From Candidatus Levyibacteriota bacterium (GTDB lineage Bacteria > Patescibacteriota > Microgenomatia > Levybacterales > UBA12049), in contig JACPLG010000003.1 in assembly GCA_016186625.1 (NCBI GenBank), forward strand, positions 9,645 to 73,644: a DNA stretch of 64,000 nucleotides. The letters run 5' to 3'. A program made the position numbers and the translations under genes. Below, piece after piece: positions 229-733 of this stretch. Below the pieces are notes generated by a model. That model saw nothing but the letters and a program-made list of their open reading frames with translations, made no database searches and was not told the origin of the DNA. How positions within the stretch are numbered: position 1 is the stretch's first letter; every line of letters starts with the position of its first letter.

Positions 229-271
229 TTGCTTTGGGGTTTTTAATTCATTCACTAATCTAGTATAACTT

Positions 272-307
272 AAGCATTCTTAAAATCTCAAGATTTTAAG
301 AATGCTT
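272..307. promoter_or_regulatory. Perfect 15-bp inverted repeat with a 6-nt centre (AAGCATTCTTAAAAT-CTCAAG-ATTTTAAGAATGCTT), about 45 bp upstream of the ArsR-like start; candidate operator or hairpin
   Basis: Read directly from the sequence. ArsR/SmtB regulators typically bind 12-2-12-type palindromes over their own promoter. Confidence 0.4.
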
Positions 308-527
308 GTCTTGCAGAGATGGGGGTCTGGGGTGAAGTATTATGGAGGTTATAAGTTAATTTATATTAAAAATGGGGCGAGTCCTTCGACTCTGCTCAGG
401 ATAAACGGAGGGAGACCGAAAGTAAATCCGGAATAAGTTAGAATAATTTGGAATAATTCCGAAAAATCCAGCCTCAAAATAAAGCAATTTTCTTATTCTA
501 ATGTTCTTAAGAATTTGAGAATGACGT

Positions 528-551
528 ACCAACATTCTCAAGTATGTTGGT
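528..551. repeat. Hairpin ACCAACAT-TCTCAAGT-ATGTTGGT, second member of the TCTCAAG-loop hairpin family; overlaps an alternative pairing GAGAATG(518-524)/CATTCTC(533-539)
   Basis: Read directly; the loop is identical to that of hairpins 1 and 3. Confidence 0.4.
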
Positions 552-580
552 ATGTTCATGTTGCAGTGGAATGATAAATC

Positions 581-610
581 TATCCTTAAATTCTCAAGTA
601 TTTAAGGATA
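581..610. repeat. Hairpin TATCCTTAAAT-TCTCAAGT-ATTTAAGGATA, third member of the TCTCAAG-loop hairpin family
   Basis: Read directly. The stem differs from hairpin 1 by compensatory substitutions (ATTCTT/AAGAAT versus ATCCTT/AAGGAT). Confidence 0.4.
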
Positions 611-733
611 GTTTCGTGTTGAAGGGGTGGATGGATTTAAAACTGTAGAATATTGATTTATTGAAGAGACGGGGAAAATTAAAATCCCGATGTGCGAAGC
701 CGTTCCACTTCGGAAGTGAATGTGTTTTGAATA

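Follow-up and report, generated by a model that had tools for sequence, protein, structure and literature searches.

What are three inverted repeats that share one centre, TCTCAAG, doing in a single intergenic region of a bacterial genome? The region in question, positions 229-733, lies near the left end of a 64,000-nucleotide stretch of a Candidatus Levyibacteriota bacterium (GenBank assembly GCA_016186625.1, contig JACPLG010000003.1, positions 9,645 to 73,644), which we refer to as the window, and extends from the end of an open reading frame (ORF) at 734-982 on the minus strand to the next minus-strand gene. An initial annotation of this DNA had described the repeats as hairpins with a common loop and co-varying stems and took them to be a structural RNA or single-stranded DNA (ssDNA) element, while allowing that the first might double as the operator of the neighbouring ArsR-like gene. 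The repeats are indeed there, at 272-307, 524-555 and 577-614 (H1, H2 and H3 in what follows), and H2 is adjoined by a degenerate fourth site, H2b. As we argue below, all four are probably duplex DNA recognition sites of the ArsR/SmtB-type protein whose predicted gene occupies 255-1 on the minus strand, so that it is the operator suggestion, extended from H1 to all copies, that the evidence favours. The elements concerned are the following.

1-255, minus strand: gene for an ArsR/SmtB-type winged-helix regulator, complete at its 5' end, with its 3' end beyond the window
272-307, minus strand: H1, a perfect 36-bp palindrome, putative operator-promoter module of the adjacent winged-helix gene
495-522, minus strand: H2b, a degenerate fourth site adjoining H2, ATTCTCAAAT-TCTTAAGA-ACATTAGAAT
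524-555, minus strand: H2, ACATACCAACAT-ACTTGAGA-ATGTTGGTACGT
577-614, minus strand: H3, CTATCCTTAAAT-ACTTGAGA-ATTTAAGGATAG

Four sites in one intergenic region

H1 is a perfect palindrome of 17+2+17 nucleotides, AAGCATTCTTAAAATCT-CA-AGATTTTAAGAATGCTT, which reads ...ATTCTTAAAAT-CTTGAGA-TTTTAAGAAT... on the minus strand; the perfect stem first described for it stands, with arms of 17 nucleotides in place of the 15 bp originally given. The other two are less regular. The 15-nucleotide arms of H2 (524-538 and 541-555) are complementary at 87%, with a core stem of 9 bp and a loop of 8 nucleotides, and the 18-nucleotide arms of H3 (577-594 and 597-614) at 89%, with a clean 12-bp stem at 580-611 and again a loop of 8 nucleotides. 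The TCTCAAG centre falls at 286 in H1, 536 in H2 and 592 in H3. H2 and H3, which lie 56 nucleotides apart, have ATTCTCAAGTAT exactly in common, and the paired differences between H1 and H3 that had drawn attention to the locus (ATTCTT..AAGAAT versus ATCCTT..AAGGAT) are real.

H2b emerged from repeat analysis and from comparison with a divergent subfamily of the regulator (subfamily 2). At this site the minus strand (520-491) encodes ILKFLRTLE-stop, the same residues with which the subfamily-2 homologue at locus L034 ends. H2b is either a site of the subfamily-2 type or what is left of the end of a lost paralogue. Its presence also accounts for an alternative stem previously reported at H2: GAGAATG (516-522) and CATTCTC (533-539) can pair as described, because one arm of the abutting fourth site is complementary to the H2 centre, and the pairing is a by-product of that arrangement rather than a terminator/antiterminator switch. 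We also considered a decayed paralogue between H2 and H1 and rejected the idea, as a six-frame profile search gave only the nine-residue ILKFLRTLE-stop, itself encoded by site-like DNA.

The heptamer TCTCAAG on its own shows no enrichment in the window (16 copies where 10.5 would be expected), and exact, mismatch and family weight-matrix scans of all 64 kb found no copies beyond the three sites, so that every copy in the window is confined to this one intergenic region. H2 is the window's top match to the family-wide consensus described below, at 28 bits from the arms alone (weight matrix), and its arm type, ACCAAC, is a common variant among family sites.

The site and the gene recur together

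We looked for the site elsewhere in two independent ways. Starting from the motif, we searched one genome per species for the 22-mer CTTAAAWTCTCAAGWWTTTAAG, the consensus of H1 and H3. A search for further copies had been proposed at the outset, and such copies exist: the 22-mer occurs at 35 genome loci, where we estimate that fewer than one would be expected by chance. Most of the matches are labelled Patescibacteria (Saccharibacteria, Nealson-, Yanofsky-, Wolfe-, Lipton-, Brenner-, Doudna- and Uhrbacteria, Levyibacteriota and Paceibacterota). The copies are nearly all intergenic, several loci have two or three of them inside about 1 kb, and a homologue of the window protein adjoins the site in 10 of the 35 loci (E = 1e-12 to 1e-36). 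Starting from the protein, we picked metagenome contigs by protein alignment alone (80 loci) and counted those genes that had enough flanking sequence. A site is present at the promoter of 77 of 83 such genes, a site lies within 150 nucleotides past the stop codon of 76 of 81, and 70 genes have sites at both ends.

What defines the site across these loci is a dyad of about 32 bp, made of two 11-nucleotide inverted arms with 10 nucleotides between them and an asymmetric centre, CTTGAGA when read along the gene strand. The spacing between arms is 10 nucleotides in all 354 arm pairs. The arms follow the consensus ACATCCTTACA, with ATCCTTAAA and ACATACCAACA as variants, and within them invariant positions (ACAT.C..A.A) alternate with variable ones. 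When a weight matrix of the arms alone was scanned over 623 kb of related loci, it detected about 226 sites, whereas shuffled sequence gave none; chance does not account for the repeats. The centre, which had no part in detection, is CTTGAGA in 146 of the 226, CTGGAGT in 39, CTTAAGA in 15 and CTTGAGT in 10. These counts show a conserved site of fixed geometry that is tightly linked to one gene family, and from the co-occurrence we infer that the protein binds the site and acts as a repressor.

The arrangement in the window has parallels too, since extra sites several hundred bp upstream of the gene recur elsewhere (L084 and L093), sometimes in pairs 63-75 nucleotides apart. At locus L041, three paralogous regulator genes (910-1194, 2435-2737 and 2999-3289), each with sites, stand in tandem. 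In the Saccharibacterial locus L036, sites at 3513, 4747, 5195 and 5893 are scattered among small ORFs, one of them GIY-YIG-like, with no regulator gene in 7.5 kb.

Some matches fall outside the Patescibacteria (the Candidate Phyla Radiation, CPR). In two Algibacter genomes and one 4.6-Mb chromosome the 22-mer has T-runs on both flanks (L019 1572-1593, L037 7132-7153 and L011 7668-7689), and at least the Algibacter copies lie between convergent genes; all three are probably unrelated bidirectional terminators that resemble the site by chance. Four further loci that carry the site (L004, L005, L021 and L032, with a regulator gene also present in L021) are labelled as Ignavibacteria or Gammaproteobacteria metagenome-assembled genomes and may be misbinned Patescibacteria contigs. 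A viral origin was considered and set aside: the 22-mer was not found in viral contigs, and the protein is encoded on only one viral-labelled contig, apparently the same contig as metagenome locus L078. In full-text literature searches on the sequence and on CPR regulators, we came across no description of the pair.

A predicted promoter with the site at its -35

Where does H1 lie relative to the gene? Full-length homologues align with the window protein from residue 1, and their conserved N-terminus, LKTPKQMERHLKG, begins upstream of ATG 228, the start that had been assumed when H1 was placed some 45 bp from the gene. The alignment thus makes GTG 255, rather than ATG 228, the probable start, and with that start H1 would therefore end 17 nucleotides from the start codon. 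A scan of 150-800 for sigma-70-like promoters returned a single match, on the minus strand, with 10 of 12 positions in agreement: TTGAGA (291-286), 18 nucleotides, TATACT (267-262).

286-291, minus strand: -35-like hexamer TTGAGA, in the centre of H1
262-267, minus strand: -10 hexamer TATACT, ending 6 nucleotides before GTG 255

The resulting layout, TTGAGA-18-TATACT-AGATTA-GTG(255), agrees with the pattern of the family, for which the upstream consensus on the gene strand is AACATCCTTACAAA-CTTGAGA-ATGTAAGGATGTTGTG-TATAAT-N6-ATG. Among 79 family sites, the spacer counted from TTGAGA is 16 nucleotides in 52, the -10 is an exact TATAAT in 50, the start codon follows the -10 after 6 nucleotides in 57, and the start codon is ATG in 70 and GTG in 8. 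Because the start codon is so near to the -10, this geometry leads us to predict leaderless mRNAs for the family genes and for the window gene alike. An extended -10 of the TGn type was also considered, was found at only 8 of the 79 sites, and was dropped.

The other sites in the window are less clearly placed. H3 is followed, after a spacer of 15 nucleotides, by a possible -10, TATCAT (576-571). H2 is followed by TCAAAT, with no good -10 downstream.

Duplex site or hairpin?

An inverted repeat may be read as a hairpin as easily as a binding site, and one alternative is that the repeats function as RNA, be it as a structured cis-regulatory motif, as a terminator or as a stem-loop that binds a protein and has a conserved loop at its apex. 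There are observations that fit this idea. As single strands, H1, H2 and H3 each fold far beyond shuffled sequences (z = -3.9 to -7.2), and some copies elsewhere have stems of 19-24 bp that extend through non-conserved sequence. Copies at stop codons would be transcribed. A loose terminator scan flagged H3, though neither H1 nor H2, as terminator-like on both strands. Arms of the same site also agree with each other beyond what independent draws would give (9.7 versus 8.45 of 12 positions), and at downstream sites mismatches of the G-U type are slightly more frequent in sense than in antisense (0.68 versus 0.25 per site), which we do not regard as a convincing strand bias.

Against these stand several features that RNA would not readily explain. 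Being upstream of the predicted start of transcription, the promoter copy would be absent from the gene's mRNA, yet promoter copies are as symmetric as those at gene ends (9.3 versus 9.6 of 12). The initial annotation had relied on co-varying stems; across the family, however, the variable positions of an arm pair are Watson-Crick in only 73-78% of sites, about 25% of cells are non-complementary, and 20 of 211 sites are mixed, with CCTTA in one arm and ACCAA in the other. The length of the would-be loop is constant. The stem sequence is conserved across phyla, which a purely structural element would not need. A T-run (at least 5 T in 8 nucleotides) follows only 20 of 73 downstream copies, and the stems are A+T-rich. 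Finally, Rfam has no relevant match in 229-733, either when the whole window is searched at gathering thresholds or when positions 1-1100 are searched at E <= 10.

Taken together, the arm, strand-bias, symmetry and Rfam results favour a duplex protein site over an RNA or ssDNA hairpin: the spacing is fixed, arms of different type can share a site, copies that are not transcribed are symmetric, and no known RNA family is matched. We consider RNA hairpins quite improbable. This leaves the symmetry of the arms, which is consistent with selection for a symmetric binding site or, alternatively, with templated correction at quasi-palindromes; such template switching is an established mutational process.

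A related possibility is that the repeats are ssDNA hairpins processed by an HUH/Y1 enzyme, such as the ends of an IS200/IS605 element, REP sequences with a RAYT transposase, or a rolling-circle origin nicked in the loop. A conserved loop on variable stems is typical of such systems, and the reverse complement of the loop, CTTGAGA, is one mismatch away from what we take to be the pC194/phiX174 nick motif, CTTGATA, a resemblance that we treat as a lead only. Nevertheless, no Y1 transposase, RAYT or Rep gene adjoins any annotated site, the window has three or four copies in 64 kb and all in one intergenic region, the stem sequences are conserved, and the link to promoter and start codon has no counterpart in those systems. 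Of this explanation we make very little; it is highly improbable.

A second copy at the stop codon

No other feature of the system is as unusual as this second copy. At most loci there is a second site, oriented like the first (TAACATCC...), whose left arm either contains the stop codon or begins just past it; in the divergent subfamily (L006, L023 and L034) the site lies within the last ten codons, which encode ILKFLR(I/T)LE-stop. A good -10 follows only 13 of 73 of these copies. An ORF starts within 30 nucleotides of 28 of 70, and some copies may thus act as weaker promoters of the gene downstream. Genes that come after the sites are very diverse, with 78 clusters among 108. By our own reading of the sequences the largest groups are TspO-like and SWIM-domain-like, and others include a glycosyltransferase, a MurD-like ligase, RNase R and a DNA-alkylation repair enzyme. 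For the gene-end copy, possible roles are those of a further operator, of a promoter serving the following gene and of a roadblock to transcription. Measured from centre to centre, upstream and downstream sites are most often 335 bp apart; looping of the intervening DNA was entertained and rejected, its phasing signal being weak and confounded with gene length.

That a gene should be bracketed by direct copies (in 70 loci) raises the question of whether the sites serve recombination, either as cores for a tyrosine recombinase (as in dif/pdif or loxP) or as integron-like boundaries, with site, gene and site forming a cassette that could move or invert. The sites resemble a recombinase core in having a conserved asymmetric centre between inverted arms of 11-13 bp, the neighbouring genes are highly diverse, tandem arrays exist (the three genes of L041, the four sites among small ORFs of L036), 11 downstream and 3 promoter sites have the opposite orientation, and three contigs from the Logan assemblies end inside H3. 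There is also a pair of loci from two near-identical strains, L129 (2350-2390) and L130 (4292-4332), whose flanks are 96.6% identical and whose downstream sites differ by an apparent inversion of a centre of about 14 bp: 12 of 14 positions match the reverse complement, compared with 8 of 14 in direct alignment. This resembles small hairpin-associated inversions.

However, template switching at quasi-palindromes would likewise be expected to produce flipped centres and symmetric arms, and the homology between L129 and L130 runs for about 80 nucleotides past the site, with no break there. Two identical proteins, found on 22 and 24 contigs, each have essentially one context, and there is no recombinase among the annotated neighbours. 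The strict promoter geometry of the upstream copy, moreover, is accounted for by transcription. Recombination sites of the kind described are thus an unlikely explanation, to about the same degree as RNA. A bolder variant, in which site, regulator and site make up a self-contained promoter-spreading module whose 10-bp centre flips or recombines, thereby moving the cassette or phase-varying promoters across Patescibacteria, strikes us as doubtful, if a shade less so.

With regard to the contig ends, L001 stops at 6610, L002 at 5936 and L003 at 2007, all in the right arm of H3 and corresponding to about 583-586 of the window; these are three independent assemblies with an identical upstream operon. 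Among the genome loci, 4 of 35 have a site within 100 nucleotides of a contig end. The ends at H3 could come from a drop in coverage at the hairpin, from repeat copies or from structural heterogeneity.

The probable protein behind the site

If the repeats are protein sites, which protein recognizes them? The fragment encoded in the window exceeds the Pfam cut-offs for HTH_5 (23.9 bits, cut-off 22) and MarR (26.1 bits, cut-off 24.6). Against solved structures, a profile of the family finds HlyU (E = 3e-9) and CadC (2.9e-5), along with PagR, other ArsR proteins and, weakly, AspA (E = 0.0015). None of the curated NCBIfam models was reached, the best being an ArsR/SmtB subfamily with 31-39 bits where the cut-off is 55. 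As the protein in the window is incomplete, the AlphaFold2 model is of its homologue P0091 (predicted local distance difference test, pLDDT, 89.4). Helices span 7-17, 20-31, 37-44, 48-60 and 79-93 in this model and strands 64-69 and 72-77, and its top Foldseek matches are CadC, SmtB, SqrR, PagR, HlyU and CzrA, at TM 0.70-0.77. As modelled, the family protein shows the ArsR/SmtB fold (helix1-helix2-helix3-helix4-strand1-strand2-helix5).

The family is large, with at least 7,177 clusters at 90% identity. The best 120 matches listed are all of about 91-104 amino acids, and those among them with a named organism are all from Patescibacteria; in the source databases, these matches are annotated as ArsR-family, winged-helix or hypothetical. 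In alignments of homologues the recognition helix, KTIGEHTRRL, hardly varies, in agreement with the conservation of the DNA site. A metal or redox site of a known type was looked for in the alignments (A1 and A3), which have no conserved cysteine, no classical helix-3/helix-5 ligands and no His/Asp pattern in the C-terminal helix. The invariant residues E11, H13, H20, E53, H54 and H75 could, as a matter of speculation, form a different site.

Some other factor, for example another transcription factor, a nucleoid protein or an alternative sigma factor, might still bind the sites, with the winged-helix gene merely their most conserved target. In keeping with this, the centre is conserved even where a role as -35 is impossible, 22 sites or more belong to loci that show no copy of the gene within 8 kb, and no residue of the recognition helix co-varies with arm type, mutual information with arm or centre type flagging only columns that are variable in general. 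On the other hand, the gene has a site at either end in some 90% of independent loci, the sites show no consistent link with any other gene, and autoregulation through palindromes at the own promoter is the rule for small ArsR-type repressors. A different binding factor is therefore not what we expect, and we put it on a par with recombination.

A putative autorepressor and the case against it

Recognition by the neighbouring ArsR/SmtB-type protein suggests a simple model. The centre of H1 would double as the -35 of the gene's own promoter (TTGAGA, 18 nucleotides, TATACT, 6 nucleotides, GTG), and the transcript from it would be leaderless. A dimer of the protein, or two dimers, sitting on the arms that flank the -35 would block RNA polymerase, resulting in autorepression. 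H2, H3 and H2b would be auxiliary or vestigial sites, possibly bound cooperatively; H3 might in addition be a weak second promoter, and H2b might be what remains of the end of a paralogous gene.

A number of observations weigh against this model. To begin with, protein and site are linked by co-occurrence alone. Second, the asymmetric centre is as well conserved at downstream sites, which mostly have no -10, as it is at promoters, and its second form, CTGGAGT, makes a poor -35; for both reasons, -35 function alone is insufficient to explain the centre. Third, the centres of the arms are about 21 bp apart, wider than in classical ArsR/SmtB operators of the 12-2-12 type. Furthermore, the diversity of the genes that follow the sites leaves no coherent regulon, and in the window there is no convincing gene for H2 and H3 to drive. 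The excess agreement between arms of the same site, given above, belongs on this side of the balance as well.

The remaining intergenic sequence and the surrounding genes

Two further features occupy the DNA between the sites.

308-494, no strand assigned: spacer between H2b and H1, with a GC-rich block and a small hairpin at 379-392
356-559, minus strand: 67-codon ORF that starts at 559, 11 nucleotides past TATCAT, and runs through H2

The GC-rich block had been singled out (at 330-430) as having a hairpin of its own. That hairpin, GAGTC-CTTC-GACTC, is present at 379-392. The block, by contrast, is not conserved: outside the sites themselves, 308-494 has no similarity to any related locus, and 308-523 showed no unusual folding when scanned for structured RNA (z = -0.52). 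No tRNA or tmRNA genes were found. Neither Pfam nor comparison supports the ORF at 356-559, which is probably spurious. Note that its start mimics the family layout of a site followed by a close start codon.

The first 8 kb of the window have a GC content of 0.32, compared with about 0.39 elsewhere, and encode several defence-type genes.

1469-2062, minus strand: HEPN-like protein (weak assignment)
2080-2367, minus strand: SNase-like nuclease
2386-2676, minus strand: HNH nuclease
2679-3332, minus strand: LexA-like S24 peptidase
3916-6699, minus strand: Eco57I/MmeI-like restriction-modification enzyme

Positions 1-8000 may be a genomic island. The regulator and its sites are situated at the left edge of this low-GC stretch. 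In the same stretch, Rfam identifies a DUF3800-IX RNA motif at 7169-7240 on the plus strand (60.3 bits, gathering score 36.8), which abuts the stop-codon end of a DUF3800 gene (7240-7863, minus strand) and is thus convergent with that gene rather than upstream of it.

In the window, then, an apparent candidate for a structured RNA becomes an ordinary element, a putative repressor binding site. More broadly, a very large and uncharacterised ArsR-like family is now paired, by co-occurrence, with a specific 32-bp site that is conserved across Saccharibacteria, Parcubacteria-type and Microgenomates-type lineages. Patescibacteria have very few transcription factors, and there is almost no experimental knowledge of their gene control. 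The pair is a testable candidate for a regulator and its operator, and might provide a ready-made regulated promoter for the few cultivable Saccharibacteria.

Comparison with known systems

Several known systems share part of this architecture. Like dif/pdif, loxP and FRT, the CPR site has two inverted arms of 11-13 bp around a short asymmetric centre, and direct copies bracket a gene. Unlike in those systems, its centre measures 10 bp rather than 6-8, no recombinase is seen, there is no breakpoint at the site, and the promoter geometry is strict. AspA of the Sulfolobus plasmid pNOB8 is an ArsR-like, centromere-binding winged-helix protein that recognizes a palindrome upstream of its own gene. 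The CPR family differs from it in that no ParA/ParB partner genes are seen adjoining and in that the sites are dispersed and associated with promoters.

An analogy may also be drawn with CIRCE and HrcA, where an inverted repeat with a fixed spacer is conserved with its cognate repressor over very large phylogenetic distances. The CPR site is likewise a fixed-spacer inverted repeat whose sequence is conserved over a wide phylogeny. The protein family is a different one, however, the CPR spacer is conserved in sequence and asymmetric, and no coherent regulon is evident.

The best comparison is with those ArsR/SmtB autorepressors that lack metal sites (HlyU of Vibrio, PagR, SqrR/BigR and SdpR). 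Here too there are differences: the CPR site is of the form 11-10-11 with a conserved asymmetric centre, as opposed to the classical 12-2-12, and that centre doubles as the -35 of a predicted leaderless promoter; the gene has a second site at its stop codon; the site is conserved across a whole superphylum; and the family reaches no curated NCBIfam model. The likenesses are nonetheless substantial. The CPR proteins have the same winged-helix fold of about 95 amino acids, running from helix 1 to helix 5, they score above the cut-off for HTH_5, they have neither conserved cysteines nor classical helix-3/helix-5 ligands, and their dyad-symmetric site overlaps the gene's own promoter, in this case a predicted one. 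The closest relatives are proteins of the HlyU, PagR and SdpR type, and in function the system looks like a classical autorepressor of the ArsR/SmtB kind.

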